DNA of 64,000 nt, taken from assembly GCA_001782475.1 (NCBI GenBank), contig MFOT01000024.1:42578-106577 (forward strand), in the 5' to 3' direction. Numbering within the stretch: the stretch's first letter is position 1; each line of letters opens with the position of its first letter. Position numbers and translations under genes: made by a program. This document shows, piece after piece, positions 39,780 to 64,000 of this stretch. This DNA comes from Candidatus Levybacteria bacterium RIFCSPLOWO2_01_FULL_38_21 (GTDB lineage: Bacteria; Patescibacteriota; Microgenomatia; Levybacterales; UBA12049). A model generated the notes under the pieces. That model was given only the letters and a program-made list of their open reading frames with translations. It searched no databases and was not told the DNA's origin.

Positions 39780-40127
39780 TTACTCTATTGAAACCTTTTT
39801 TCCAAGAGGACCGATCAGGTGAAAATGGAGATGATTTATAATCTGCGCACCGCCCCCATTTACAATAATTTTGTATCCTCTGTCTTCCAGTTTTTGATTT
39901 TTGATTAATTTTTGGATAACAGTTTTTAATTTACCAAAAAGCAGATTGTCTTCGAGATCCAAAAAATCTACGATGTGTTTCTTGGGCATAATAAGAAGGT
40001 GGACAGGCGCGATCGGATTAATGTCCGGAAAAACCATCATTTCTTGATCTTTGTATATAAATTCTTTTAGAATTTCTTTCTTTGCGATTTTGCAAAAAAT
40101 ACAATCCATAAGCCAGTTACTAGCCAC
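39780..40127 (-). CDS. HIT-family (histidine triad) hydrolase
   Basis: CIFCKI... and HLHFHLIG histidine triad. Confidence 0.8.
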   Translation of the reverse strand: MASNWLMDCIFCKIAKKEILKEFIYKDQEMMVFPDINPIAPVHLLIMPKKHIVDFLDLEDNLLFGKLKTVIQKLIKNQKLEDRGYKIIVNGGGAQIINHLHFHLIGPLGKKVSIE

Positions 40128-42743: not shown

Positions 42744-43724
42744 TTATTTCTTCTTAACTTCCCTGCCCTGAGCTTTTATCCTGAGCGGAGTCGAAGGATG
42801 CCGAATGGGGTGGCCGCCGAAAGCGTTTCGAAGAGCAGAAATCATTTTTGCGGTAAAGGAATTTTGAATTTTTGGATTCTCTTGAGATCTTTTTCTAAAA
42901 TCAAGCGATCTTTCAATAATCTCAACCGGGACGTTTTCTTCTTTCGCCTGATCAATCGTCCAATCTGCTTCTCCCGAGCTTTCGATAAAACCTGAAGATT
43001 TTGATAAATTCGGATCTTTTTTTAAAACATCGACTACCCTATCAAGCATAAAGCCTGAAACCAGTGTCCCTTTTTGCCAAAGCTTTGCAACTTTAAGAAG
43101 ATCAAATTCGTACGGAGCTTTTTCTAAAACCTCAAACCCTTCCGAAAGACTTTGCATAATTCCATATTCTATTCCGTTATGAACCATTTTTATAAAGTGT
43201 CCTGCTCCTCCCTCTCCAAAATATTCATATCCTCCATTGGGTTTTGAGAGAGTATCCAAAATTGTAGTGATGTATTGATACGCTGAGACATCGCCGCCGA
43301 CCATTAGAGGGTATCCAGTTTTTTCGGCAATAATTCCCCCCGAAACTCCAATTCCCAAAAATCTTATCCCTTTTATCTTTAACTGCCTATATCTTCTTGC
43401 AGTATCTTTAAAATAAGAATTTCCTCCATCTATAATAATATCTTCTGTTTCTATAAATTTGACAACTTCATTTAAAGTACTCTCTGTTACGGAACCTGCC
43501 GGAAGCATTAACCAAATAACTCTTGGTTTTTCAAGACTTTTAACCATCCACTCTATAGTTTTAAATAGTCTGTATTTTGCGCCTTTAAAAGAAGCCAGTT
43601 TCGCTTCTAATTTTTTAAAAGGCTCCTCTGATCTATTCCATATTGAAACTTCGTGTCCGTCCAAGATAAGTTTTGCCACTATCCGACTTCCCATTTTTCC
43701 AAGTCCAATAAACCCGACTTTCAT
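42744..43724 (-). CDS. gnd: 6-phosphogluconate dehydrogenase, decarboxylating (short YqeC/GntZ-like form)
   Basis: MKVGFIGLGKMGSRIV NAD-binding N-terminus; 6PGDH C-domain; adjacent to zwf and pgl. Confidence 0.7.
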   Translation of the reverse strand: MKVGFIGLGKMGSRIVAKLILDGHEVSIWNRSEEPFKKLEAKLASFKGAKYRLFKTIEWMVKSLEKPRVIWLMLPAGSVTESTLNEVVKFIETEDIIIDGGNSYFKDTARRYRQLKIKGIRFLGIGVSGGIIAEKTGYPLMVGGDVSAYQYITTILDTLSKPNGGYEYFGEGGAGHFIKMVHNGIEYGIMQSLSEGFEVLEKAPYEFDLLKVAKLWQKGTLVSGFMLDRVVDVLKKDPNLSKSSGFIESSGEADWTIDQAKEENVPVEIIERSLDFRKRSQENPKIQNSFTAKMISALRNAFGGHPIRHPSTPLRIKAQGREVKKK

Positions 43725-50849: not shown

Positions 50850-52217
50850 TTATGGAACTGGAAAATTACTACAAAACTCCTTTACTTGCCTATTAATTTC
50901 CAAAAGTTTTTTGTTCCTTACAATCTTTCTTTTAAACTCCTTCCAAAACTCGCTTCTTTTTTCTCTTGTGGTGAGCTTGCCGAATCCATTTTGTAATCGA
51001 CCCCCCTTTATTTCTTCAATTACCTGATTGATCCATTCAGCAATTTTTACCATCTCTTTTTCCTTCATGCCTCTTGTTGTCAGAACTGGAGTTCCTAAAC
51101 GAATTCCCGATGGGTAAAACGGCGGCATTGGATCATTTGGTACGGCATTTTTGTTAACAACTATTCCCGCAACCTCCAGAGCAAAAGCTGCCAAAGCGCC
51201 GTTTACCTTCCTATTCGAAAGATCAATCAACAAAAGATGATTATCCGTTCCTCCGCTTACAAGATTAAATTTAAATTTCCTGAGCTCTTCAGCGAGGACT
51301 TTTGCATTTTTGACCACCTGCTGACTATATTTTTTAAATGACGGGAAACCTGCTTCTAAAAGACTAACTGCAATTGCCGCGGTTTGATTATCATGCGGCC
51401 CTCCCTGTAATCCCGGAAAGACTGCTTTATCAATTTTTTCTCCCAACTGTGAATCTTTTTTTAGCCCCTCACCAGTCACCATGATGATAGCTCCCCTTGG
51501 ACCCCTAAGAGTCTTATGTGTCGTCGTCATAACAATATGGGCATAAGGAACTGGTGAAGGGTGAGCGCCAGCGACTATTAATCCTGCAATATGGGAAATA
51601 TCGGCTAAAAGATATGCTCCTACTCTGTCTGAAATCTTTCCAAATCTTTTAAAATCTATAATTCTAGGATATGCGGTTGCTCCACAGACAATTATTTTTG
51701 GTTTTTCTTTTAAGGCAAGTTTTTCAACTTCATCATAATCGATTAATCCGTTTTTATCCAAATGATATGGCACCACTTTATAGTATTTTCCCGAAATTGA
51801 AACAGGCGATCCGTGGGTTAAATGACCTCCAAAGGCAAGCGAGAGTCCCATTATTTTATCTTTAAAAGGTTTAAGAAGCGCAAGATAAACTGCAGTATTT
51901 GCAGGAGATCCGGAATAAGGCTGGACATTAACATAAGAAACTCCAAACAATTTTTTCGCCCGCTCCTCTGCCAAGATTTCTACACTATCTATAATGGTAT
52001 TCCCCTGATAATATCTTTTCTTAGGATACCCTTCCGAATATTTATTTGTTAGAACACTTCCCAATGCCTCCATTACAGCCTTTGAAGTATAATTTTCAGA
52101 GGGAATCATCTCCAAAACCTCTTCCTGCCTTTTTTCTTCCTCTTTTATTAAATTGTAAATCTCAGGATCTGTCTGTTTTAATTTTCTCATAATATTATTT
52201 CCGAGCGTTTTGAACAT
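50850..52217 (-). CDS. glyA: serine hydroxymethyltransferase
   Basis: LTNKYSEGYPKKRYYQGN and the TTHKTLRGPRG PLP-lysine region. Confidence 0.9.
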   Translation of the reverse strand: MFKTLGNNIMRKLKQTDPEIYNLIKEEEKRQEEVLEMIPSENYTSKAVMEALGSVLTNKYSEGYPKKRYYQGNTIIDSVEILAEERAKKLFGVSYVNVQPYSGSPANTAVYLALLKPFKDKIMGLSLAFGGHLTHGSPVSISGKYYKVVPYHLDKNGLIDYDEVEKLALKEKPKIIVCGATAYPRIIDFKRFGKISDRVGAYLLADISHIAGLIVAGAHPSPVPYAHIVMTTTHKTLRGPRGAIIMVTGEGLKKDSQLGEKIDKAVFPGLQGGPHDNQTAAIAVSLLEAGFPSFKKYSQQVVKNAKVLAEELRKFKFNLVSGGTDNHLLLIDLSNRKVNGALAAFALEVAGIVVNKNAVPNDPMPPFYPSGIRLGTPVLTTRGMKEKEMVKIAEWINQVIEEIKGGRLQNGFGKLTTREKRSEFWKEFKRKIVRNKKLLEINRQVKEFCSNFPVP

Positions 52218-52721
52218 TTACCTCTCTAAATTAATGAATCTGAATTTAATTCCGTTTGATTCTCCGGTTTCTTCGCTTACTACTTTTTTAAACTGCGAAT
52301 AATCCGGGAAAAATGTATCGCAACTAAAGTCCCCCTCAACTTTTGTTAAGTATATTCTATTTACAATACCTTTTTCCAGTACTTCGCGAAAAACATGTGC
52401 TCCCCCAATTATAAAAATCTCGCGATTTTCAGACTTTTTTGCTTTATTAATAGCATCTTCCAACGAATTCGAAATTACTATTCCCTCTTTTTTAAAATCT
52501 GGATTTTGTGTCACAACTATATTTACTCTGTTCGGAAGTGGCTTTCCAATATACTCCAGAATTGATTCAAAAGTTTTTCTCCCCATTATAACAGGGTGTC
52601 CGGTCGTAAGTTTTTTAAATCTCTTAAGATCCTCAGAAATATGCCATGGAATTGTATTATCTTTACCGATTCCGCCTCTGCTGTCTATTGCTACGATTAA
52701 ACTAATTCTTGGTTTGCTCAT
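52218..52721 (-). CDS. folA: dihydrofolate reductase
   Basis: ISLIVAIDSRGGIGKDNTIPWH ... GRKTFESI. Confidence 0.85.
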   Translation of the reverse strand: MSKPRISLIVAIDSRGGIGKDNTIPWHISEDLKRFKKLTTGHPVIMGRKTFESILEYIGKPLPNRVNIVVTQNPDFKKEGIVISNSLEDAINKAKKSENREIFIIGGAHVFREVLEKGIVNRIYLTKVEGDFSCDTFFPDYSQFKKVVSEETGESNGIKFRFINLER

Positions 52722-53274
52722 TGCATTTTTTTCTCAAAACAAGTATATTATACCAATTGCGAGGTGGCAAGCATTCATAAACAAAACAGAAATTTCTATC
52801 CCATATAGAATAGATCGAAACCCTGACACGACTGACGTTGAGAGGGTTTTCATAAATCCAGAGGCAGGCACCAATTGCGAACTTTTAGTTCATTCAATCG
52901 TTTCTGCAAGGGGTTTTGAACTCCCCCGACTTAGATCTTCTGATCTATACGAAGATACTAATTATACTAGTCTCGTTGAAGACATATCACAAGCTCAAAC
53001 TGGAGATATAATAGGTCTTAGCCCAATAAATAAAAATGGTTTTAGAGGAATTCACGTCGCAATGATATGGATTGACGATAGCAAAAAAATACACATAGTT
53101 CATAATGCAAGACACACAGGAGGAGTACGATTGCAGACACTCGAGGATGCAATGCAACATCCTGAGCATGCAAGAATTGCATGGATTAAAAGACCAATTA
53201 GAGAAAATCCTACTCTCTTACAATCAGAGAAACTCAGAGAGCTTGATTTTGGCTATTTAGCAAGAGATCTTTGA
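52714..53274 (+). CDS. hypothetical protein
   Basis: 186-aa ORF; no confident motif. Confidence 0.3.
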   Translation: MLIAFFSQNKYIIPIARWQAFINKTEISIPYRIDRNPDTTDVERVFINPEAGTNCELLVHSIVSARGFELPRLRSSDLYEDTNYTSLVEDISQAQTGDIIGLSPINKNGFRGIHVAMIWIDDSKKIHIVHNARHTGGVRLQTLEDAMQHPEHARIAWIKRPIRENPTLLQSEKLRELDFGYLARDL

Positions 53275-53441
53275 GCAACCCTAACAGCGTCTTCCTCCCG
53301 GAAGTCCGTATATTCCTGTCAGATACCCTGCTTTCTCGGTGTGTTTTACTAAAAGAACCTCATCGTCTTTAATAATTAAAACAGCGACAGTCGGGATTAT
53401 TTCTATCATTTATTAAAAATATTAACCGTTGGATTGTAGTG

Positions 53442-53455
53442 ATGTATCAATACAT
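53442..53455. promoter_or_regulatory. candidate operator palindrome ATGTATCAATACAT (downstream of the TrpR-like gene)
   Basis: Part of a 20-nt exact match GTGATGTATCAATACATCAA shared with 61058-61077. Confidence 0.4.
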
Positions 53456-53464
53456 CAATATGAG

Positions 53465-53851
53465 TTAGCTAAACCATCTTTTTACGAATTTTGAACCACC
53501 GTACGGTCCCTTTTTTAGAAAGTCTTTCTTTTCTCTATCCATTTGTTTTTCTATTCTTTCTAAAGCTAGAATAATTCCGCCCTCTCCCTCTTCAATTATT
53601 CTTTTCATCCTCGAAACGGTTTGAGTACTTGTTTTTGCTTTCAATGCAACAGTTCTTAAGTCCAGACCTTTTATCAAAAGGCTTGCTATGTGCCATCTTC
53701 TTTTTAGCATTCGAAGCTCAGATTTTGTCAGGATATCTTTTAAAAATTTTTTAATTTCCTCCGTATCTTTTAAAGAATTTATAATCTCATAGAGAAAATG
53801 AATCTCTCTAAAATAATCTTCATTTTGAATTTCCTCCCTTGGTTTTGACAT
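53465..53851 (-). CDS. TrpR-like (YerC/YecD family) DNA-binding protein
   Basis: LTKSELRMLKRRWHIASLLIKGLDLRTVALKAKTSTQTVSRMKR fits the Trp-repressor-family HTH. Confidence 0.55.
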   Translation of the reverse strand: MSKPREEIQNEDYFREIHFLYEIINSLKDTEEIKKFLKDILTKSELRMLKRRWHIASLLIKGLDLRTVALKAKTSTQTVSRMKRIIEEGEGGIILALERIEKQMDREKKDFLKKGPYGGSKFVKRWFS

Positions 53852-53895
53852 AAAATAATTATACCAATAACTTATAGCCTATCAATTTTGTTTCC

Positions 53896-53909
53896 ATGTA
53901 TCAATACAT
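53896..53909. promoter_or_regulatory. candidate operator palindrome ATGTAT-CA-ATACAT (upstream of the TrpR-like gene)
   Basis: Inverted repeat with 2-nt spacer; identical copies at 53442-53455 and 61064-61077. Confidence 0.45.
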
Positions 53910-53985
53910 CATTATAGTATCACAACAAAACAAACGATAATAGTTCTAAAAAATACAAGGAGTATTCGAACTAAATCGCAAAATT

Positions 53986-54954
53986 TCAGAAGCCTCCGAC
54001 AACTGTGACTTCTCCTTTGATTGGAGGGTGGGAATCATATCCTTCCAAAGTGAAATCTTCAAATTTTATATCGTCTATGTCTTTTAATTTTGGATTGATT
54101 TTCATTTTGGGAAACGGCCGTGGTTTTCTTTTAATTTGCTCTTTGACCTGATCAAAATGATTGCTGTAGATATGCGCATCTCCAAAGGTGTGAACGAAAT
54201 CCCCGGGAGGATAACCCGTCAGATGGGCAAAAATCATCGTAAAAAGCGCATAGCTTGCTATATTAAACGGAACGCCCAAAAAAAGATCAGCGCTTCTTTG
54301 ATATAGCTGGCAGGAAAGCCGGCCATTTATTACATTAAACTGGAAAAGCGTATGGCAGGGCGGAAGAGCAACCGATTGTCCCGGCTTTGCCATTTCATAT
54401 ACAAACTCCGGATTCCAGGCAGAAATTACAATATGCCGCCTCTCCGGTGTTTTTTTTATCTTTTGAATCGCCCATTTTACCTGATCGATTTTCCGCCCAT
54501 CTGATGCCGGCCATCTTCTCCACTGGACTCCATAAACAGGCCCCAATTCTCCATATTTTTTAACAAACGGATGATCGGATGATGAGCTTTTTATTTTTAC
54601 AACATACTCTTCCTGCGTCAATATTTTTGAGTTTTGAGTTTTGAGTTTTGAGTTTTGGGCTACTTTGTAGCCCTTGTATCCCCATTCATCCCAAATATGA
54701 ACATCGTTATCAACTAGATATTTTATATTTGAATCGCCTCTTAAAAACCAGATCAACTCATGCAAAATTCCCCTAAGAAAAACTTTTTTCGTAGTCAAAA
54801 GAGGAAAACCGGTTGATAAATCAAAGCGAATTTGCCTTCCAAAAACACTCCTAAACGTTATTCCGGAATTAAACTCATGCTTCTCAAACCCATTTTCCAT
54901 GACATCTGTAAGTAAATCTAGATATTGATATTCCGGATGAAGATTTTTTTTCAT
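53986..54954 (-). CDS. thyA: thymidylate synthase
   Basis: [25 protein letters not shown] (catalytic Cys); in-frame ttttgag heptad-repeat insertion ([11 protein letters not shown]). Confidence 0.9.
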
Positions 54955-55490
54955 ACTTGTTTCTCTCTTTTTAGCACGCTAACGCGTCCTCCCTGCCACT
55001 GACCACGATATAAACTTCCTCCACCCAAAACCTGCTCAAATTGGGCGTGAACAAACCGTGCTCCCATCTCAATTGCAACCGGAATAGGCCCTTCATTTTT
55101 AAGCCCGAACGTTAATTTTCCTTTATATCCGGGTGCGACATTTCCCGTCCTTAGGAAAAGACCCGATCGAAAAGTCGTTGTCCTTGGCTTAAAATTAATT
55201 GTGATATCAAACGGCGTATTCACGCTTTCTATTGTCGTGACAAGATAAAAATCCCCAGGCTTGATTAAAATACTCCTGTTCTCTCCCTCTACATATTTTT
55301 CAACAAGCTTGATATCTGCGGTTTTACGGTGGGTTTCTCCAAGGAAAGCATCGCCCGAAATTTTATAGACTTCTCCAAGTCTCAAATCAAATCCGGCACC
55401 TTCAGGATTCTCAAGCTCTCTTTTGGATAAACCCTCGACGAGTTTTTTCGTCTTTACTAATTGCAATAATTTTCTCGGCCCAAGTACCAT
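54951..55490 (-). CDS. dCTP deaminase/dUTPase-fold protein (divergent Dcd paralog)
   Basis: [42 protein letters not shown] matches the dUTPase-superfamily beta-barrel motifs. Confidence 0.6.
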
Positions 55491-55496
55491 AAATGC

Positions 55497-55622
55497 TAAA
55501 TTCTAATATCTAAATCCTAAATAAATTCCAATTTTCAAGATAGCAAATTCGAAACAGTTTTGTATTTATAAATTGTGATTTTGATATTATTTAGGATTTC
55601 GGATTTAGTGTTTCGAATTTAC
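55497..55622. mobile_element. empty MITE-like element (paired inverted repeats, no cargo)
   Basis: Arms ctaaattctaatatctaaatcctaaata (left) and tttaggatttcggatttagtgtttcgaattt (right) match the arms flanking the four-helix-bundle gene at 10917-11385. The right arm supplies the last 9 codons and the stop of tmk. Confidence 0.5.
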
Positions 55623-56283
55623 CGATAATATCGGCTGTTACTTTCTCCTGCGACCTTTCTCCATCTATCGCAGTTATTTCTTTAGAAAATTTCTTTGCGA
55701 TCCAGTCATATCCTGCTTTTATATTTTTAAGTTTTTCCGCTGTTTCGTAATATTCCTGTTTCTTTCTCATTTTAGAAAGTCTTGATATTGCAGTAGTCTC
55801 TGAGACATTAATATAAAAAGTTACATCCGGAACTATAAACTGGTGGTACATAGAAATAATGCTTTCCGAAACTAGAAGAATTTCTTCATTTTTTAATTTA
55901 TGCAGGTCTTCTTTTTTGTCTGAAATCCCATATGCAACTGACGACCAAAAACATCTATCCGAAATTACGATTCTACCTTTTTGAAGTGGTGGCTCAACAA
56001 CAGTTTTCATATGAATCGCTCGGTCTGCAGCAAAAAGGTATTGAACAGAGACCGGTGGCAGATCTATCTTTTCTTGTATAAAATCGTGAATTAGAGTCCC
56101 TATTGGAGGGATGTTTGTAGGTTCTTTTGTATAAACTACCTTCTTTTTTTTATCTTCGAAGTATTTTTTTAAAATAGAAGCTTGAGTTGTTTTACCAACC
56201 CCATCTATTCCTTCAAAAGCAACATAAACCCCTTTATATGGATTTTTTCTAAGCTCGATATCAAAAGAAACATGATGCTTCAT
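55591..56283 (-). CDS. tmk: thymidylate kinase
   Basis: VAFEGIDGVGKTTQ P-loop, DR(C/Y) motif. Confidence 0.85.
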   Translation of the reverse strand: MKHHVSFDIELRKNPYKGVYVAFEGIDGVGKTTQASILKKYFEDKKKKVVYTKEPTNIPPIGTLIHDFIQEKIDLPPVSVQYLFAADRAIHMKTVVEPPLQKGRIVISDRCFWSSVAYGISDKKEDLHKLKNEEILLVSESIISMYHQFIVPDVTFYINVSETTAISRLSKMRKKQEYYETAEKLKNIKAGYDWIAKKFSKEITAIDGERSQEKVTADIIGKFETLNPKS

Positions 56284-56849
56284 TTTTCTTCGTGAATTTT
56301 GCTCTCATCCGGCTCTCTTTGCGTCCTGTATTTTGCGGTTTTCTTTTGCGAATATGGAGTTTCTGCCTCGCTTGACAACTGCTCAAAACTCATTGCGCAA
56401 ATTCTCATGCCGGGGGTAAGCTTTACTGCCATTCGTCCCAAATTGCCAAGCTCCAAAACACACTTCCCGTCCCACCCCGCATCAAAAATTGACGCTGTTG
56501 AATGTACAACTATCCCAAGCCTACCCAAGGAGGACCTACCCTCAAGCCTTCCCATCATATTATTCGGAATTTTAACTCTCTCAAGCGTCACTGCCAAAGC
56601 AAAATCCCCGGGCTGCATAACAAATCCCTCGCCGTTTCTAACAACCACTTTTTTGGTTATTTCACTTGAGAAATTTTTTTTGGAAGGATCGATATACGGA
56701 TATTTGCTATGTTCAAAAACGCGAAAAACATTTCCCAACCGAAGATCAATAGAACAAGTTCCCAGCTGTTTGGAAAAATCAGGAAGAGGTTTTATCACTA
56801 TTTTTTTTGTTTTAATAGCTTTTTTAAGATCTCTATCCGACAAAACCAT
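56280..56849 (-). CDS. dcd: dCTP deaminase
   Basis: MVLSDRDLKKAIKTKKIVIKP ... GRLEGRSSLGRLGI ... canonical Dcd. Confidence 0.8.
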   Translation of the reverse strand: MVLSDRDLKKAIKTKKIVIKPLPDFSKQLGTCSIDLRLGNVFRVFEHSKYPYIDPSKKNFSSEITKKVVVRNGEGFVMQPGDFALAVTLERVKIPNNMMGRLEGRSSLGRLGIVVHSTASIFDAGWDGKCVLELGNLGRMAVKLTPGMRICAMSFEQLSSEAETPYSQKKTAKYRTQREPDESKIHEEK

Positions 56850-56953
56850 AGCAAAAGTTTAACACCAAAACTAAGAATTTAAAAGTAGTAAATTTGATAC
56901 CGCTTGACAAGTTAATAAAAATACCCTACTGTGTTTATAGAACTTATCTAAAA

Positions 56954-57628
56954 ATGGCAAAACAAGCAAAAACAAATCGATCAAGAACATTAGGTCTCTT
57001 TATACTATTTTTAATCGTCGCCGCAATCCCCCTGACCGTTATAATTTCCCAACAGCAACAGGAAACCCGCCAGCGTGCCGCCGGAATAATTGCAACTCCT
57101 GCTCCGGGATCTCGTCCTCCCCCCTGCTATATACCGCAAATAATTATTGACAAAATCAGATCCTCTACCAATAATCAAAATTTAAATACTCAATGGAGAC
57201 GACTCTTTGGCTATGGAGATGTAGATCTGGATGGATCTGTCACCGCTAGGGATGCTGAGCTTGTTTTGAAATTCGTTGTAAATTCTTATAAACTTACTCC
57301 CTTGCAAATAGAAGCAGCAGATGTAAATGGAACGCCAAATGTTCTTTCGGGAAAGTCAGATGTTGATTCAGTTGATGCGCTGAAGATACTCAGATATACT
57401 ACCGGTCGTTTTGAAAAAACTTTCCCCGTCTGCGGCAATTGGCAAGTAACTCCCACCTGTCGGCCTAGACCCCCATGTCTGGACGCAACACCAAAGTGTC
57501 TTATTGCAGAAACAGCTGACATGTGTCCACGCCCGACGCCTACCTGCCGTCCGAGGCCAGCCTGTTTGGATGCAACTCCAAGATGCTTGATTGCGGAAAC
57601 TTCAGATATGTGTCCCCGAACTAAGTAA
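56954..57628 (+). CDS. membrane-anchored dockerin-domain protein with tandem Cys/Pro-rich C-terminal repeats
   Basis: TM helix then ETRQRAAG; YGDVDLDGSVTARDAELVLKFVV ... ADVNGTPNVLSGKSDVDSVDALKILRY are two dockerin-like Ca-binding repeats; duplicated TPTCRPRP(P/A)CLDATP(K/R)CLIAET(A/S)DMCPR. Confidence 0.5.
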   Translation: MAKQAKTNRSRTLGLFILFLIVAAIPLTVIISQQQQETRQRAAGIIATPAPGSRPPPCYIPQIIIDKIRSSTNNQNLNTQWRRLFGYGDVDLDGSVTARDAELVLKFVVNSYKLTPLQIEAADVNGTPNVLSGKSDVDSVDALKILRYTTGRFEKTFPVCGNWQVTPTCRPRPPCLDATPKCLIAETADMCPRPTPTCRPRPACLDATPRCLIAETSDMCPRTK

Positions 57629-57707
57629 AAAAGCTCTCCGATTTTAGTACATATTCATAATTCTATTGGATATGTAACAACAATTTTAGAGAACCCAAGA
57701 TCAGGTA

Positions 57708-59618
57708 TTGACAAAGAGCGCAGTTTTGCGTACCTTTAAAGATATAGGGTTTCTTATGGATAAGGACACAAAAGAGAATTCACCCGCCAAGCCTGCCTCA
57801 GAACCTGTTTCCTATGCGAGAAGCAATAATTTCTTACCGAAATTCTTCGATAAGTTTTTCTCCTTTTTCACCAAAAAAACTGTTGCCGGTCTTGCTATTT
57901 TAGTTTTAGTAATAGGGATCGGAGCAACAATAATTGCAGTCCAGCGCTCAACAGAAATAAGACAACGAGCCGCTACCTCAACCTATTCTCTTTCTGGAGG
58001 GCAGGGAGATCTTTCGGGAAATGACAAACAGCACAAGATTCTTTATGCTTGGCAGCCCCCCAGCAGTCCTGGAGGGCAATATCATATTCTACTTGTCCGT
58101 AAAAACTATAATCCAGAGTGGAATAAGTTTGATTACAGAGTTGGCGAAATAGGAGGTTTGTCATTCATAACATTTACCTATGGCCAACCTTCCAGTACCT
58201 ATAAAGCGGCAATTTTCAACGGTCTCACAGGTGCAATACTTTCCAATGTAGTCTCTGTTACCACCGCTGCTACCTCAACACAAGGAGCACCTGATCTAAT
58301 TATTCAAAGTCTTACTCTTTCTACCTATAATCCTACTCCTGGTCAAACAGTCACTACCACTGTTGTTATCAAGAACCAAGGATCTGTCGCTGTAAACTCC
58401 CTGTTTGCCACTGCTTTGTGGGCGGATCGAGGTTCTGCTCCACCCTGTAATGATAAAACTTATAACCAGAGGAAATCAACTTATAATTCGCTGGCAGCAG
58501 GCGCAACTCAGACATTAGATATGCCTTTTTTTGCGCCCTCAACTAATGGATCAAAAACCGCCTGGGTTTTCGTTGATGACAGCTGTATAATCTCAGAAAG
58601 TAATGAGGGAAATAATACAGCCAGTGTAAACTATACTGTCGGGGCTTCAGCCATAAATTATACCGTCAGTGTCTATGTTTTTGTGGATAAAGATGGAGAT
58701 GGGATAAAAGATGGATCCACCGACCCTTATTATCTTAACGCAACAGCAACTCTAACAGGTGGAGGGTTAAATATTACACGTTCTATGCCTAATGGAAGTT
58801 ATGCTTTTAAAGTACCCGCTGGAACTTATACAATAACTGTCCCCACTCCTGCCGGATACAGGGCGACTACTCCCAATCCTACCTCAAGGACAGTACCGCT
58901 AGATGCCTACGTTGGTTTTGGTATACAGCGCGCACCAACTCCAACCCCAACTCGAGCCCCAACCAGAACACCCACCCCAACTCGTACACCTACTCCAACC
59001 GTGCCTCCTAATCAGACCCCAACTCCAACTGGAGTTGTAACCCCAACCCCAGGCGGAGGAACTCAATTTGCCCTATCTATAGGCCTTGACGGAATAGGAA
59101 GTGTAGGAGATAATGCCACTCCAAATGATAGCAGCGGCTCAAACAAGAATCCCACACGAACAACAAGAAACGCTGTGGTACAAATTTATAATGCGACAAA
59201 CAATCTAGTTGCATCAACAAGCGGAACTGTTGCTTATAATTCCACTCAAGGAATATTTATCGGCAATGTAAGCCTAGGTACAAACACAGATATACAAAGT
59301 GGAAGTTTCATTGTAAAAGTGAAATCAGACGGGTATCTTAGAAGGCGAACTCCAGGAATTCAAAATGTAGTATTGGGGCAAGTCAATACTATACCACAGA
59401 TTAATCTTGTTACCGGAGATATAAATGGGGATAATGCAATAAATATCCTCGATTACAACATTCTCATAAGCTGCTCCATCTTCTCAACCGATAATCATGC
59501 AACCTGCAATAGTAACAGCCAATACGCTACGCTTTCTGACCTTGATGATAACGGAGCAATTAATCAATTTGATTACAACTTGTTCCTAAGAGAACTCTCT
59601 GTCCAAAACGGAGACTAA
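57708..59618 (+). CDS. membrane-anchored surface protein with Cna-B-like domain, PT linker and a C-terminal type-I dockerin
   Basis: TM helix then EIRQRAAT; VFVDKDGDGIKDG...GSYAFKVPAGTYTITVPTPAGY (Cna-B/SdrD-like); APTPTPTRAPTRTPTPTRTPTPT linker; C-terminal GDINGDNAINILDYNILIS ... SDLDDNGAINQFDYNLFLREL dockerin repeats. Confidence 0.55.
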   Translation: MTKSAVLRTFKDIGFLMDKDTKENSPAKPASEPVSYARSNNFLPKFFDKFFSFFTKKTVAGLAILVLVIGIGATIIAVQRSTEIRQRAATSTYSLSGGQGDLSGNDKQHKILYAWQPPSSPGGQYHILLVRKNYNPEWNKFDYRVGEIGGLSFITFTYGQPSSTYKAAIFNGLTGAILSNVVSVTTAATSTQGAPDLIIQSLTLSTYNPTPGQTVTTTVVIKNQGSVAVNSLFATALWADRGSAPPCNDKTYNQRKSTYNSLAAGATQTLDMPFFAPSTNGSKTAWVFVDDSCIISESNEGNNTASVNYTVGASAINYTVSVYVFVDKDGDGIKDGSTDPYYLNATATLTGGGLNITRSMPNGSYAFKVPAGTYTITVPTPAGYRATTPNPTSRTVPLDAYVGFGIQRAPTPTPTRAPTRTPTPTRTPTPTVPPNQTPTPTGVVTPTPGGGTQFALSIGLDGIGSVGDNATPNDSSGSNKNPTRTTRNAVVQIYNATNNLVASTSGTVAYNSTQGIFIGNVSLGTNTDIQSGSFIVKVKSDGYLRRRTPGIQNVVLGQVNTIPQINLVTGDINGDNAINILDYNILISCSIFSTDNHATCNSNSQYATLSDLDDNGAINQFDYNLFLRELSVQNGD

Positions 59619-59688
59619 AATGAATACTACCAATACTACCAATAAACCAATATTGGAATATTTGTAGTATTTGTAGTATTCTTATCTT

Positions 59689-60294
59689 ATGTCCAGACGA
59701 ACTATTATATTAATAATAATACTTATAGGAATAACTGCGATTCTTTTGGCAATTGCATTAACGCCAAAGCAGGCTCCAGTCCCGGTAAAACAACGGCCAA
59801 CTCCCAGCATTTCTTATGCGCAAACCACGCTTAGGATAAGTAACAATCCTGCTTTGGTGAATTCTACCTCCTCAGCAGTTCCTCTTTACTCAGCAGACGT
59901 AACAATAATAACCGGAGACAATAAAGTAAATGCCGTTCAACTTGAGTTAGCTTTTGACGTAGCTCGTCTTTATAATGTCGATATAAAACCAGGTTCTCTG
60001 TTCCAAAATTCGGTGGAGTTGCTTAAAAAAGTAGATAATCAAAAAGGGACTATTTCTTATGCTCTTGCAGGAGGACTTGGTCAAAAGGGAGTGACGGGAG
60101 GAGGAACCGTAGCTGTAATAACTTTTCAGGAAAAAGGAAAGGCTGGAGAAATTGCGAGTATAAATTTCCTGCCAAAAACTTTGGTAACAGCTCAGGGCAC
60201 AGATAAATCGGTTCTTAAAACCGCAGTCGGCGCTACATTCCCAATTCAGGAATCGCCATCTCGGTTAAATACCGGCACTCCATCCGCTCAGTAA
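59689..60294 (+). CDS. membrane-anchored cohesin-domain protein (mini-scaffoldin)
   Basis: N-terminal TM helix; beta-sandwich sequence VNAVQLELAFDVARLYNVDIKPGSLF...GTISYALAGGLGQKGVTGGGTVAVITFQEKGKAGEIASINF follows the cohesin pattern (v.a.q..l.yD...l..v...g.l....g.g..g.G.la.itF). Confidence 0.5.
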   Translation: MSRRTIILIIILIGITAILLAIALTPKQAPVPVKQRPTPSISYAQTTLRISNNPALVNSTSSAVPLYSADVTIITGDNKVNAVQLELAFDVARLYNVDIKPGSLFQNSVELLKKVDNQKGTISYALAGGLGQKGVTGGGTVAVITFQEKGKAGEIASINFLPKTLVTAQGTDKSVLKTAVGATFPIQESPSRLNTGTPSAQ

Positions 60295-61031
60295 CCGCCT
60301 TTTTTAAAGCGCGCGTTTTTAAGAAAAGGGGCGTATAGATCTTCCTTAAGTATAATTTTAATTTTTCCCAAATCTTTTTTTGTTGGGCTTTTTTTTTGAA
60401 AAACAATACCGGGTATTCTTTCTATTACTACAATCGGAGTCTGCTCGTTCCCCTCTCCCATAACCATTACTGCCGCCGCTGCCAAATTGTCTACAACACT
60501 TAACTTTGTAAACTCAAGTTTTCTTCCAAAAATATCCTTCGTCCCAATATAATTTTTAAGCGGCTCAAACCCGCTGTAGGCGACTGAAAATCCTGTTACT
60601 CCCCATCTTAAAGGTGTAGTCCTGCTGTCGGTTATAATCACTCCCACATTTTCAAGGTTGAATCTTGATTTGAGCCATTTTCTAATCCGATTTGCAGATT
60701 TTTGCGGATTTTTTGGCCAAAGAATATAATAACCATTACCGTTTGATTCATCAATCCCTGCACTTGCAACAAGCGCTCCCCCTGTTATGGTAAGACTTAC
60801 GTTGTACGGATTTTGCGATCTTGGAAGATAATATTGCGATTCTCTTTTTATCAACTCGTCCTTATCAATTGTTCCTATTTTGATAATTCGTCCCTCTGTT
60901 ATGGCAACAATTTTTGATGCAATCGCAACAACTGATTTCTCAGAAAGCTTTTTCACATAGCGATCTAAAATCCTGAAGATGTCCTTATCTTTTTGGGTAA
61001 TTTTATGAGTCTTAATCCCCGTAACTTTCAT
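60288..61031 (-). CDS. CofE-like gamma-glutamyl ligase family protein (F420-0:gamma-glutamyl ligase homolog)
   Basis: IITDSRTTPLRWGVTGFSVAYSGF ... DNLAAAAVMVMGEGNEQTPIVVI matches CofE-family motifs. Confidence 0.6.
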   Translation of the reverse strand: MKVTGIKTHKITQKDKDIFRILDRYVKKLSEKSVVAIASKIVAITEGRIIKIGTIDKDELIKRESQYYLPRSQNPYNVSLTITGGALVASAGIDESNGNGYYILWPKNPQKSANRIRKWLKSRFNLENVGVIITDSRTTPLRWGVTGFSVAYSGFEPLKNYIGTKDIFGRKLEFTKLSVVDNLAAAAVMVMGEGNEQTPIVVIERIPGIVFQKKSPTKKDLGKIKIILKEDLYAPFLKNARFKKGGY

Positions 61032-61063
61032 ATTTTACTTTAATGTACCGGATATCTGTTGTG

Positions 61064-61077
61064 ATGTATCAATACAT
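61064..61077. promoter_or_regulatory. candidate operator palindrome ATGTATCAATACAT upstream of the cofE-like gene
   Basis: 20-nt exact match to the site next to the TrpR-like gene; lies about 33 nt upstream of the start at 61031. Confidence 0.45.
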
Positions 61078-61094
61078 CAAATCACAAACGCAGA

Positions 61095-61493
61095 TTATAA
61101 TTCTTCTACTATCCATTCTCCGTTTATTTTTTTTATATAAACAGGGAAAACTGAAACTTTTGGAAATATTAATGACATAAGATCTGAAGTTTTTCTTATG
61201 TCCTTCTTGTGTATTTCTTCTGAAACCGGATTCCCTGCGCAATCTTCATGTCCTGAAACAACTATATTTTTTGATTTATGTTTTTCCAAAGAAATTTTTA
61301 TTTTATTCGCAAGGGAATCAATCAAGTACTTGTCTGGGTGATCTTTTGAGAAAAGCCCAACAAGTCCTGCTTCTGTAATTGTGTCCGGGTATTTCGCGCC
61401 GAATTTTTTCCAGCCGAAATCAGCAATGGGTTTTTGAACCCGGCCATCTATACACCCAACGCTTGTAAAAAATGTATCGCTTGATGAGGACAT
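61095..61493 (-). CDS. hypothetical protein with beta-carbonic-anhydrase-like Cys/His motifs
   Basis: CIDGR and GHEDCAG resemble the CxDxR / HxxCG zinc ligands of beta-CAs; the start is probably MSSSSD, since the longer ORF-track start overlaps a tRNA fragment. Confidence 0.3.
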   Translation of the reverse strand: MSSSSDTFFTSVGCIDGRVQKPIADFGWKKFGAKYPDTITEAGLVGLFSKDHPDKYLIDSLANKIKISLEKHKSKNIVVSGHEDCAGNPVSEEIHKKDIRKTSDLMSLIFPKVSVFPVYIKKINGEWIVEEL

Positions 61494-61520
61494 AATTGTG
61501 ATACTATAACAAAAAGTTGG

Positions 61521-61585
61521 TGGGTCGGGATGGAATCGAACCATCTACCTGTCGCCTCAGGCGACCGTTCTGCCCATTGAAACAG
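61521..61585 (-). tRNA. tRNA-like gene, 3' portion (positions ~8-73, encoded CCA follows at 61518-61520); lacks the 5' acceptor strand; aberrant anticodon arm
   Basis: Minus-strand reading: CTGTTTCAATGGGCAGAACGGTCGCCTGAGGCGACAGGTAGATGGTTCGATTCCATCCCGACCCA + CCA. The T-arm GATGG-TTCGATT-CCATC is canonical. The anticodon arm is a perfect GTCGCC-TGA-GGCGAC hairpin, giving a 3- or 5-nt loop. Confidence 0.5.
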
Positions 61586-61657
61586 TGGGCACGGATAGAA
61601 TCGAACTATCCACCTCTTCTTTATCAGAGAAGCGTTCTACCAATGAACTACGTGCCC
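61586..61657 (-). tRNA. tRNA-Ile (anticodon GAU)
   Basis: GGGCACG-TA-GTTC-ATTGGTA-GAAC-G-CTTCT-CTGATAA-AGAAG-AGGTG-GATAG-TTCGATT-CTATC-CGTGCCC-A forms a canonical cloverleaf; CCA is not encoded. Confidence 0.8.
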
Positions 61658-61890
61658 AAAATTTGCTTTAAAAGCTCTCTTCCTTTTCCGCTTTTCAAAA
61701 ATCTTTCCCTACGACTTGCCCCTAATTTTGTATTATATGTCTCCTTATAAATTAACTCAAACGGTCCAGCCTGGCTCGTATATTTAGTTTGACCGTTATT
61801 ATGTTCAGCAATTCTCCTGTTTAGATTATTTGTCGAACCGGTATAATGCCTACCGTTCTTCAAGCTTTTCAAAACATAAACGTACCACAT
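61648..61890 (-). CDS. GIY-YIG nuclease domain protein (stand-alone URI-domain endonuclease)
   Basis: MWYVYVLKSLKNGRHYTGSTNNLNRRIAEHNNG covers the GIY..YIG, Arg and Glu/Asn catalytic motifs. The ATG lies 6 nt after the breakpoint of the tRNA-like 5' fragment. Confidence 0.65.
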   Translation of the reverse strand: MWYVYVLKSLKNGRHYTGSTNNLNRRIAEHNNGQTKYTSQAGPFELIYKETYNTKLGASRRERFLKSGKGRELLKQILGT

Positions 61891-62445: not shown

Positions 62446-62578
62446 AAATCTTAATAAGACCTATGATCCCAGCAATTATTCCGCCAAAAATAGCTATATT
62501 TTTGAGTTTTTCAGTAAAACTTGGCTGTCCCTCTTTCATAATTTTTAATTCTAAGCTTTGAATTCTAAATTCTATTAG

Positions 62579-62651
62579 AGGCGCGAAGGGGACTTGCACC
62601 CCTGAATGGCTGTTCTGCAGACAGCTGTGTTAGCTACTTCACCACCGCGCC
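62579..62651 (-). tRNA. tRNA-Cys (anticodon GCA)
   Basis: GGCGCGG-TG-GTGAAGTAGCTAACAC-A-GCTGT-CTGCAGA-ACAGC-CATTC-AGGGG-TGCAAGT-CCCCT-TCGCGCC-T. U73 discriminator and G7-U66 are typical of tRNA-Cys; CCA is not encoded. Confidence 0.7.
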
Positions 62652-62764: not shown

Positions 62765-62795
62765 AAAATCCCTCACCAATTTGGTGAGGGATTTT
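62765..62795 (-). terminator. rho-independent terminator downstream of the 16S rRNA gene
   Basis: Minus strand reads AAAATCCCTCACC-AAATT-GGTGAGGGATTTT followed by TTGTTGG. Confidence 0.5.
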
Positions 62796-63283: not shown

Positions 63284-64000
63284 ATTTCGATAACTTGGGT
63301 TGTTTCGAGTTCCCACTAGACAAGCGGTTTTCCCGCATCTAGCGAGCCCCTGTTCATCTGTGATTTTAACTGTCGAATCTTCTTATATCCTTCATTACTT
63401 TTATGTTCTCCATTCTTTACCATTAAAGCGATTCGCCGAAAGAGTAAATAATTTTTAAGCTTTTTGCTATGAAGCTGGTTCTTATCAAAAAAAGGTATTA
63501 TTTTTTCATGTAAATCTTTTTGAGCAGTTACGCCAAATCTGTAACAATTTTTTTGATTTGCACGATATTCCTTTTGATAATATACTCCACCGCAATCAAA
63601 AAACTTCTGAACTTTCTTGAGTAATGGAAGTTCGTCTTCCCGAAGTTTTATGAAAAAGTGCATTTCTACTCGAGATTTATGAGTTCTGTTTGGAACTCTA
63701 GTCGCTACATAAAAACACCCTTCTCCATCAGTTAATCCTACGATATAATCATCAGATAAACGATTAGGTTTTTCCCTTCCCCCGCTAAGCGGGGTACTAT
63801 GGATCTGCTGACTTCTCTTCTTCAAGTTCATCTACCTTGAGAATAGATAAACAATTACCCAATTGTCAAGAAGAGATCTCCTAAGGTCACTTACCAAACA
63901 ATTCCTGGCATCCTAATTAGACTTTTTATATGTTCTTCCCTTAGACACACCTGATTAAGGTCGAACGTCTATTTTTTATTAGGCTGTCATTTGCTTCAGG
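63284..64000 (-). mobile_element. 16S rRNA intron (probably group I) inserted near E. coli position ~1400, continuing beyond the window
   Basis: The expected TGTGTACA following CCGCCCGTCA is replaced by more than 700 nt of non-rRNA sequence that contains a LAGLIDADG ORF. Confidence 0.6.
63316..63831 (-). CDS. LAGLIDADG homing endonuclease encoded within the 16S intron
   Basis: DYIVGLTDGEGCFYV is a single LAGLIDADG motif in a 171-aa protein (homodimer type). Confidence 0.75.
   Translation of the reverse strand: MNLKKRSQQIHSTPLSGGREKPNRLSDDYIVGLTDGEGCFYVATRVPNRTHKSRVEMHFFIKLREDELPLLKKVQKFFDCGGVYYQKEYRANQKNCYRFGVTAQKDLHEKIIPFFDKNQLHSKKLKNYLLFRRIALMVKNGEHKSNEGYKKIRQLKSQMNRGSLDAGKPLV

Follow-up and report, generated by a model that had tools for sequence, protein, structure and literature searches.

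The window analysed here is a 64,000-nucleotide (nt) stretch of contig MFOT01000024.1 from Candidatus Levybacteria bacterium RIFCSPLOWO2_01_FULL_38_21, and the element of interest is a palindromic DNA site that brackets a small gene of the TrpR/YerC family within it. An earlier note on the window had proposed that this palindrome is the operator of an autoregulated repressor and of a metabolic target gene. The genes around the sites all lie on the minus strand, except for three plus-strand cohesin/dockerin genes. Read along the minus strand, the order is Pro_CA_2, site 3, a CofE-like ligase gene, the cohesin/dockerin genes, dcd, tmk, a DCD/dUTPase-like gene and thyA, followed by site 2, the yerC-like gene, site 1, a 42-codon open reading frame (ORF), folA and glyA (Table 1). 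The regulator gene thus stands among the genes of the thymidylate cycle, with ThyA on one side and FolA/GlyA on the other.

The palindrome recurs exactly at two lengths. The 20-mer GTGATGTATCAATACATCAA has exactly two copies in the window, at 53439–53458 and 61061–61080, and 0 matches were obtained across 100 shuffles. Both copies had been reported; the second, however, had been placed at 61058–61077, which is off by 3 nt (61077 is the end of the third 14-nt core, not of the 20-mer). The 14-mer core ATGTATCAATACAT has exactly three copies, at 53442–53455, 53896–53909 and 61064–61077, the middle one being an exact match at the position first given for it. When up to two mismatches to the 14-mer are allowed, 10 matches are found against 0.59 expected, a number that none of 100 shuffles reaches. 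The recurrence of the motif—two exact copies of the 20-mer, three of the 14-mer—excludes chance.

Alignment of the sites revealed two points about their extent. Firstly, the palindrome is the centre of a longer dyad. At sites 1 and 3 the symmetric unit has the form 8-2-8, TGATGTAT-CA-ATACATCA, in which the central CA is not self-complementary; the full site is a dyad of ~28 bp, TGTnnnnATGTAT-YR-ATACATnnnnACA, to which all three reported sites belong, and the length of 14–20 bp previously given for the site is therefore too short. Secondly, each half of the dyad consists of TGT, a stretch of ~6 variable bases and GTAT, with the spacer YR between the halves, and information content in the half-site matrix is highest at TGT and at GTAT. 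As a consequence of this TGT-N6-GTAT layout, invariant GT/AC dinucleotides stand at positions 2, 10, 18 and 26 of the 28-mer. The pattern TGTA-N12-TACA is present twice within the 28-mer, at an 8-bp offset; in some half-site types the outer tetramer is TGTT or TGTC. The half-site types are A (TGTAGTGATGTAT), B (TGTTTCCATGTAT), C (TGTCTCAGCGTAT) and that of the related locus L010 (TGTATTCACGTAT).

The half-site matrix (14 nt) was trained on 23 sites from 12 other genomes, with the sites of the window left out. Applied to the window, which is AT-rich (35–47% GC), it returns exactly four sites of 29–32 bits, while the best of 50 shuffles reaches 16.6 bits. The next-best independent score in the window is 1.9 bits, besides a 6.5-bit score that overlaps site 1. 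Where three sites had been described there are hence four, the addition (candidate operator 4) lying within a 6-phosphogluconate dehydrogenase (6PGDH) gene. Two copies do bracket the TrpR/YerC-family gene, one of them in its promoter region, as first described: operator 1 (hereafter "DOWN") begins 2 nt past the stop codon and its 20-mer 7 nt past it, ahead of the remnant of a Nudix gene, while the core of operator 2 ("UP") lies 45–58 nt upstream of the ATG (53851). The placement of the other reported copy about 30 nt before the CofE-like gene also stands, the 14-nt core of operator 3 ending 33 nt upstream of the ATG (61031).

Conservation of the flanking sites in related genomes

A contig search with an alignment of the regulator yielded 12 Levybacteria-type loci (L001–L012; 56–83% identity) and two distant ones (L013 and L014). 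Together with the window and two genomes that were not used for training, the 12 loci make up the 15 genomes counted below. All 12 are syntenic, with the order dcd-tmk-DCD-like-thyA-(nudix)-yerC-(nudix or other)-folA-...-glyA. In each of them a GTAT-YR-ATAC core lies just past the yerC stop codon and another 22–52 nt upstream of the ATG. The dyad flanks the yerC-like gene on both sides in 15/15 genomes, and the copy after the stop codon stands ahead of nudix/folA/glyA-type genes; in the relatives, the next genes behind the DOWN site are nudix, folA, glyA, HAD or Ham1-like. Both sites are present in the two out-of-sample genomes, whose regulators are 53% and 55% identical, at 28.9/37.4 and 26.9/35.1 bits, respectively.

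Elsewhere in the related loci the site is absent. Across 199 kb, no site of ≥10 bits was found beyond the yerC-flanking pair, save for a 10.3-bit overlap of the L010 UP site, and none of ≥10 bits precedes dcd, tmk, the DCD-like gene or thyA in the window or in L001–L012. Nor do the distant YerC-like loci L013 and L014, which are of HisR type, carry a Levybacteria-type site. Only in L014 (9944–11566) is the context HisR-like: in this locus, from a Dojkabacteria metagenome-assembled genome, a 102-aa YerC-like gene lies directly before hisS; this position, together with the absence of the site, fits a HisR-like role there.

A metagenome scan with the exact 15-mer GTGATGTATTGATAC returned 120 stretches, of which only ~5 hold full sites according to the matrix, the rest being chance matches; it gave no usable census of the regulon and contributed three loci, L063, L119 and L127. 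On the short contig L127, a 36-bit site (219–248) stands between a divergent yerC-like gene and a gene for a 600-aa ThyX (Thy1) protein. Since ThyX is a non-orthologous thymidylate synthase, L127 provides a second, independent link to thymidylate synthesis. The other two contigs show no visible yerC. In L063, a 30-bit site (1013–1042) falls within a FemAB-like ORF, and a uracil-DNA glycosylase gene follows ~740 nt downstream of it; in L119, a 37-bit perfect dyad (964–993) lies just after the gene for a YfbR-like HD 5'-deoxynucleotidase.

The regulator and its predicted promoters

By sequence and predicted fold, the product of the bracketed gene is a member of the TrpR/YerC family. It matches PF01371 (Trp_repressor) over residues 16–99 with 57.9 bits (cutoff 27) and TIGR02531 (YerC/YecD) with 55 bits (cutoff 42.2); against the TrpR equivalog model TIGR01321 it scores 20.3 bits, below the cutoff of 67.25. 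An AlphaFold model shows six helices (pLDDT 81.6), and a Foldseek search with this model places 3G1C, 3FRW and 3KOR first (TM-scores of 0.74–0.84, root-mean-square deviations of 1.7–2.0), followed by E. coli TrpR structures including 1TRR. In the alignment with the HisR-type structures, the recognition helix STQTVSR falls opposite STATISR. The last helix is longer and is followed by a conserved basic C-terminal tail, GGSKFVKxWF, which is of low confidence in the model. The protein is 100% identical to a Candidatus Levybacteria RIFCSPLOWO2_01_FULL_38 protein.

The recognition helix reads STQTVS in all relatives except L004 (STTTVS) and L010 (STSTVI). The operator arms of these same two loci are also the most divergent, TTAATGTAT-TA and TTCACGTAT-CG. 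Protein and site may thus co-vary in L004 and L010, these being two cases only.

Comparison with the known members of the family shows where the Levybacteria protein agrees and where it departs. B. subtilis YerC and its orthologues correspond to HisR, a histidine-responsive repressor that has 20-bp palindromic operators and, in about half of cases, controls its own gene (PMC9413887). The HisR operator is cacTTTAnnnnnnTAAAgtg, or TGTAnTArnnnnyTnTTACA in Proteobacteria; for TrpR the motif is TGTAcTnGTnnACnAgTACA, and 8 bp is the distance between its half-sites. Both regulators have operators that are 20-bp palindromes of the type TGTA...TACA (PMC9413887). Like HisR, the Levybacteria regulator is a small HTH (helix-turn-helix) protein of dimeric type that falls into TIGR02531, has the fold of 3G1C, 3FRW and 3KOR at 28–31% identity, shares a similar recognition helix (ST-x-T-[VI]-SR) and is associated with a palindromic operator, often before its own gene. 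Unlike HisR, it (i) neighbours thymidylate/folate genes (dcd, tmk, thyA, nudix, folA and glyA), with no his genes among the neighbours in 15/15 genomes, (ii) is associated with an operator of ~28 bp rather than 20 bp, (iii) is 128 aa long including the C-terminal tail, whereas HisR measures ~100 aa and lacks the tail, and (iv) occurs in Patescibacteria. With E. coli TrpR it shares the fold (1TRR, 1TRO and others; TM-score ~0.67–0.72); an operator built from TGTA...TACA 20-mers with half-sites in 8-bp register and the logic of autoregulation and co-repressor may be common to the two as well. Identity is only 17–19%, and the two differ in the inner operator sequence, in the regulon and presumably in the ligand. 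TrpR binds longer operators in tandem, the complex 1TRR being a tandem one according to the title of the entry.

The UP sites carry the geometry of a promoter. In 10/10 genomes in which the UP site is centred on TTGATA, a TAnnnT box follows at 17 nt (18 in one), against a background of 5.7%, and seven of the 10 also have the TG of an extended −10 box. The minus strand of the window has TG-a-TAGGCT 17 nt after TTGATA. The five UP sites with a TCGATA, TTAATA or TCAATA centre have no such −10 box. The constant geometry of the 10 implies that the −35 box of the regulator's own promoter coincides with the operator centre. The dyad lies 22–68 nt from the ATG, and only 22–23 nt from it in L004 and L010. 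Such a placement is what autorepression would be expected to look like; the comparative evidence (flanking sites in 15/15 genomes, a −10 box in 10/10 TTGATA-centred UP sites) strongly supports the autoregulation that had been proposed, with binding predicted. A second sigma-70-like promoter of the yerC-like gene, a consensus match, is predicted immediately downstream of operator 2; from the end of its −10 box to the ATG there are 6 nt.

The DOWN sites are arranged differently. Their central TTGATA was considered as a −35 box and rejected, a properly spaced −10 box being present in only 2/15. In 9/15 genomes, a −10 box matching at least five of six positions lies within 8–45 nt beyond the core (background 17.8%); it is often ~26–29 nt out, which places the −35 region of a putative promoter for the next genes on the outer arm of the operator.

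Proposed operator function and competing explanations

We put at roughly 70% the probability that the palindrome is the operator core of an autoregulated TrpR-family repressor of the thymidylate/folate cycle, encoded by the gene that it brackets. A dimer of the protein, or a pair of dimers in 8-bp register as with TrpR, would occupy each site together with a small-molecule co-repressor. TrpR uses Trp and HisR uses His in this role; by analogy, a folate or a thymidine/deoxyuridine nucleotide could be the co-repressor here. Binding would block RNA polymerase at the regulator's own promoter (autorepression), and also at or ahead of the downstream thymidylate-cycle genes. In this genome, two operators would have been added (one before the FolC2-like ligase gene, the other inside the 6PGDH gene as a roadblock), and the Nudix gene behind the downstream operator has decayed.

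Several points weigh against this reading. Firstly, binding, repression and effector are inferred from sequence, the effector and the binding stoichiometry being guesses by analogy, and the promoter assignments are consensus matches in AT-rich DNA. Secondly, all 15 genomes belong to one clade (Levybacteria and relatives), and so the counts are not independent events. Thirdly, the DOWN site stands 5–25 nt from the yerC stop codon, while the next ATG is 38 to ~310 nt away. Behind operator 1 of the window lies a decayed gene, with an opposite-strand ORF between it and folA, and in L003 the gene after the DOWN site is convergent. It follows that the DOWN site cannot simply gate folA in at least two genomes; its closeness to the yerC stop codon even there indicates that it may also serve yerC itself, perhaps by preventing read-through or in cooperation with the UP copy ~455 bp away. 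Fourthly, operator 3 is present in none of seven orthologous ligase loci (L135–L139, L142 and L143; 67–86% identity).

This last result bears on the claim that the CofE-like gene is a regulon target. The best NCBIfam match of its product is TIGR04132, "putative folate metabolism gamma-glutamate ligase" (280.6 bits, below the cutoff of 350), which is a better match than TIGR01916 (CofE; 140.8 bits, below the cutoff of 180.65). The enzyme is thus probably of FolC2 type, glutamylating folate; a Chlamydia CofE homologue, CT611/FolC2, complements E. coli folC (PMC1971073). The seven orthologous loci keep the synteny (Pro_CA_2 or HAD, ligase, cohesin/dockerin genes, dcd-tmk), and in L135 and L136 no spacer is left between the ligase gene and the Pro_CA_2 gene upstream of it, the two genes abutting or overlapping. 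With the site upstream of 0/7 orthologues, the ligase gene was rejected as a conserved target, and operator 3 is a gain of this genome, in which we regard the predicted target as genuine. Where the clade consensus has ATCAC, sites 1 and 3 both read ATCAA, suggesting that one of the two was copied from the other.

Operator 4 is embedded in frame in coding sequence, where it codes for DVSAYQYITTI. The 6PGDH family consensus at these positions is GGDKSAYEYIKPILD (59 homologues), and V, Q/R and TT are found only in the small clade of the window. A 71%-identical 6PGDH gene, in L140, has ATGTCTCAGCGTAT-CG-ATACATAACAACAA at the same codons (24.6 bits), and its Q-to-R change amounts to the allowed spacer variant CA-to-CG. 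A 72%-identical 6PGDH gene with the family-consensus residues, in L141, has no site. Judging from these alignments, the site has evidently been accommodated by changes in the protein sequence, with the non-consensus residues as the cost. A transcription roadblock is the simplest guess at the function of operator 4.

A further point against operator function comes from the DOWN sites of the relatives, which would also fit an explanation at the level of structure. As RNA hairpins, the palindromes would stand at either end (5' and 3') of the yerC transcript and act as terminator, processing site or stabiliser; alternatively, they would form DNA cruciforms. These DOWN sites are near-perfect palindromes with arms of 13–15 bp and fold into predicted hairpins of −15 to −18 kcal/mol (z −5.6 to −7.1), with stems of 13–14 bp and tetraloops. 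Their arms show compensatory changes between lineages (GTGAT/ATCAC, TCCAT/ATGGA and TTCAC/GTGAA), their distance to the yerC stop codon is short and fixed even where the next gene is convergent (L003), and they are more symmetric than the UP sites (13.5 versus 10.4 of 17 positions, p = 0.0013). However, the UP sites and all four sites of the window fold weakly (z no stronger than −2.0) and are conserved in sequence nonetheless. In the window, predicted hairpin energies range from −1.9 to −9.9 kcal/mol (z −0.1 to −2.0); operator 1 gives a weak RNA hairpin (−5.9 kcal/mol, z −1.9) and for operator 2 no hairpin is predicted (−1.9 kcal/mol, z −0.1). The UP sites combine two arm types that are unable to pair, a hybrid make-up that is conserved, and in several sites the palindrome runs through the centre (TCGA, TTAA), with no bases left for a loop. 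The DOWN sites are not followed by a T-run, the terminator scan reports no terminator at any site, and no Rfam family was found at the sites in a scan of 40000–64000 (E ≤ 0.1). Moreover, the UP site contains the −35 box, and so most of it is untranscribed. The hybrid UP half-sites and the weak window hairpins indicate that it is sequence, not fold, that is conserved, and structure is not what all the sites have in common. We consider a purely structural role improbable; an added one, for the DOWN copy, may exist. A survey of short-range inverted repeats in the window was uninformative on the genome-wide style of hairpin terminators.

The sites could also be operators of another DNA-binding protein encoded elsewhere, for example one that is NrdR-like, with the linkage to YerC incidental to the thymidylate cluster. 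NrdR is a repressor of deoxynucleotide supply (ribonucleotide reductase and some deoxynucleoside triphosphate genes) that acts through palindromic boxes near promoters. Thymidylate, folate and deoxynucleotide genes are the expected regulon of a nucleotide-pool regulator, the high-scoring sites of L119 and L063 lie on short contigs away from any visible yerC, and the tie between protein and DNA comes from sequence comparison. Against this, it is the yerC-like gene that both sites closely flank in 15/15 genomes, rather than thyA, dcd or tmk; the UP site holds the −35 box of that gene; the pairing of yerC and site recurs beside thyX in L127; and the distant HisR-type YerC-like genes of L013 and L014 are without such a site. 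In addition, the geometry TGTA-N12-TACA in an 8-bp register resembles that described for operators of the TrpR family. NrdR itself differs in protein family (Zn-ribbon and ATP-cone) and in its box, and there are no nrd genes here. A regulator other than the YerC-like protein therefore seems unlikely to us.

A promoter module or small dispersed repeat of REP (repetitive extragenic palindromic) or MITE (miniature inverted-repeat transposable element) type, working without a dedicated regulator, would account for the TTGATA centre, a good −35 hexamer oriented to the downstream gene at sites 1–3, and for the 20-nt identity of sites 1 and 3 including the same ATCAA deviation, but it is very improbable: the window holds only four copies in 64 kb and the 199 kb of related loci only yerC-flanking sites, in syntenic rather than scattered positions (random copies being what the earlier note named as evidence against an operator); a promoter module has no need of a 28-bp dyad; a properly spaced −10 box is found at 2/15 DOWN sites and at site 3 in 0/1; and one copy is conserved in frame within coding sequence. 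A mobile cassette flanked by repeats was rejected, the position of the gene being syntenic in 15 genomes.

Folate and one-carbon genes of bacteria are usually described as controlled by riboswitches; tetrahydrofolate (THF) and ZTP riboswitches are the usual RNA-level control, for instance of glyA and of folate transporters. Here, control appears to be exerted by a protein and a DNA operator, whereas THF and ZTP riboswitches are RNA, and none was detected by Rfam in positions 40000–64000 of the window. In the literature searched, we found nothing that links the TrpR family to folate/thymidylate genes, no dedicated protein regulator of the ThyA-FolA-GlyA cycle and nothing relevant on regulons of Patescibacteria. 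The genomes of Candidate Phyla Radiation bacteria are tiny and encode very few transcription factors; to our knowledge, almost none of the regulons of these bacteria are known.

Going beyond the autoregulated TrpR-family repressor proposed above, we offer a more specific reading tentatively, as a possibility on which we would not bet. Under it, Levybacteria and related Patescibacteria would possess a TrpR-family sensor of the thymidylate/folate cycle, whose ligand has switched from an amino acid to a folate or pyrimidine deoxynucleotide. Two dimers in 8-bp register would occupy the 28-bp operator and act both by promoter occlusion and, in coding sequence, as a roadblock; 6PGDH would have been remodelled to hold the site (K>V, E>Q/R, KP>TT), and the two operators that bracket the regulator gene might cooperate, for example by looping across ~455 bp.

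On the main reading, the predicted regulon, the longer operator and the lineage are new relative to TrpR and HisR. The TrpR/HisR family would extend to a third kind of regulon, one that shifts between close relatives: an operator has been gained before the ligase gene, another is written into coding sequence, and the gene behind a kept operator has decayed. Although the organism is uncultured, the 28-bp site and the 128-aa protein are directly testable in vitro.

Neighbouring genes and other features

Table 1. Positions in the window of the regulator gene, the four candidate operators and the surrounding features.
Feature	Position	Strand	Site sequence	Remarks
Operator 1 (DOWN)	53434–53463		TTGTAGTGATGTAT-CA-ATACATCAATATGA	32.3 bits (matrix trained on other genomes)
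Operator 2 (UP)	53888–53917		TTGTTTCCATGTAT-CA-ATACATCATTATAG	29.4 bits; promoter of the YerC-like gene
Operator 3	61056–61085		CTGTTGTGATGTAT-CA-ATACATCAAATCAC	31.2 bits; 24 nt upstream of the CofE/FolC2-like ATG
Operator 4	43262–43291		TTGTAGTGATGTAT-TG-ATACGCTGAGACAT	30.7 bits; within the 6PGDH gene
TrpR/YerC-family regulator gene	53465–53851	−		128 aa; presumed operator binder
Predicted second sigma-70-like promoter of the YerC-like gene	53858–53885	−	TTGATA-16-TG-TATAAT	11/12 consensus matches; extended −10 TG
6-phosphogluconate dehydrogenase gene	42744–43724	−		hosts operator 4
glyA	50850–52217	−		SHMT, 536.6 bits
folA	52218–52721	−		DHFR_1, 178 bits
Opposite-strand ORF	52714–53274	+		186 aa; fills the gap between Nudix remnant and folA
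Nudix gene remnant	53233–53409	−		~40–57 N-terminal codons left; in-frame stops
thyA	53986–54954	−		Pfam
DCD/dUTPase-like gene	54951–55490	−		Pfam
tmk	55591–56283	−		Pfam
dcd	56280–56849	−		Pfam
CofE-like gamma-glutamate ligase gene	60288–61031	−		PF01996, 146.5 bits
Pro_CA_2 gene	61095–61544	−

In the closest relatives a Nudix gene stands behind the DOWN operator, of which the window has only a remnant of the gene: tblastn with the Nudix proteins of L001 and L002 matched only residues 1–39 and 1–57. The Nudix protein was also considered as an NrtR-type regulator and rejected, since it is a bare Nudix domain of 138–140 aa, and several genomes have retained the sites although its gene is missing or decayed. 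The 186-aa ORF on the opposite strand matches nothing in Pfam, NCBIfam or PDB, and none of the related loci fetched has a counterpart of it. The two DCD-family paralogues flank tmk, a pairing that is kept across the related loci; the shorter paralogue is also a weak match to the archaeal-type dUTPase model.

Further features lie towards the end of the window. A long palindrome with 33-nt arms (88% complementary) occupies 59622–59681, between CARDB/dockerin and cohesin genes, and is possibly a terminator. An 80-aa GIY-YIG ORF (61648–61890, minus strand) overlaps the end of a tRNA-Ile (61585–61657), and a tRNA-Cys is found at 62578–62651. At 62765–62795, two 15-nt arms separated by 1 nt form a perfect inverted repeat. 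Finally, a LAGLIDADG_1 endonuclease ORF (63316–63851, minus strand; 73.7 bits) abuts an Rfam match to group II intron D1-D4 at 63773–63851 (38.2 bits against a gathering score of 35).

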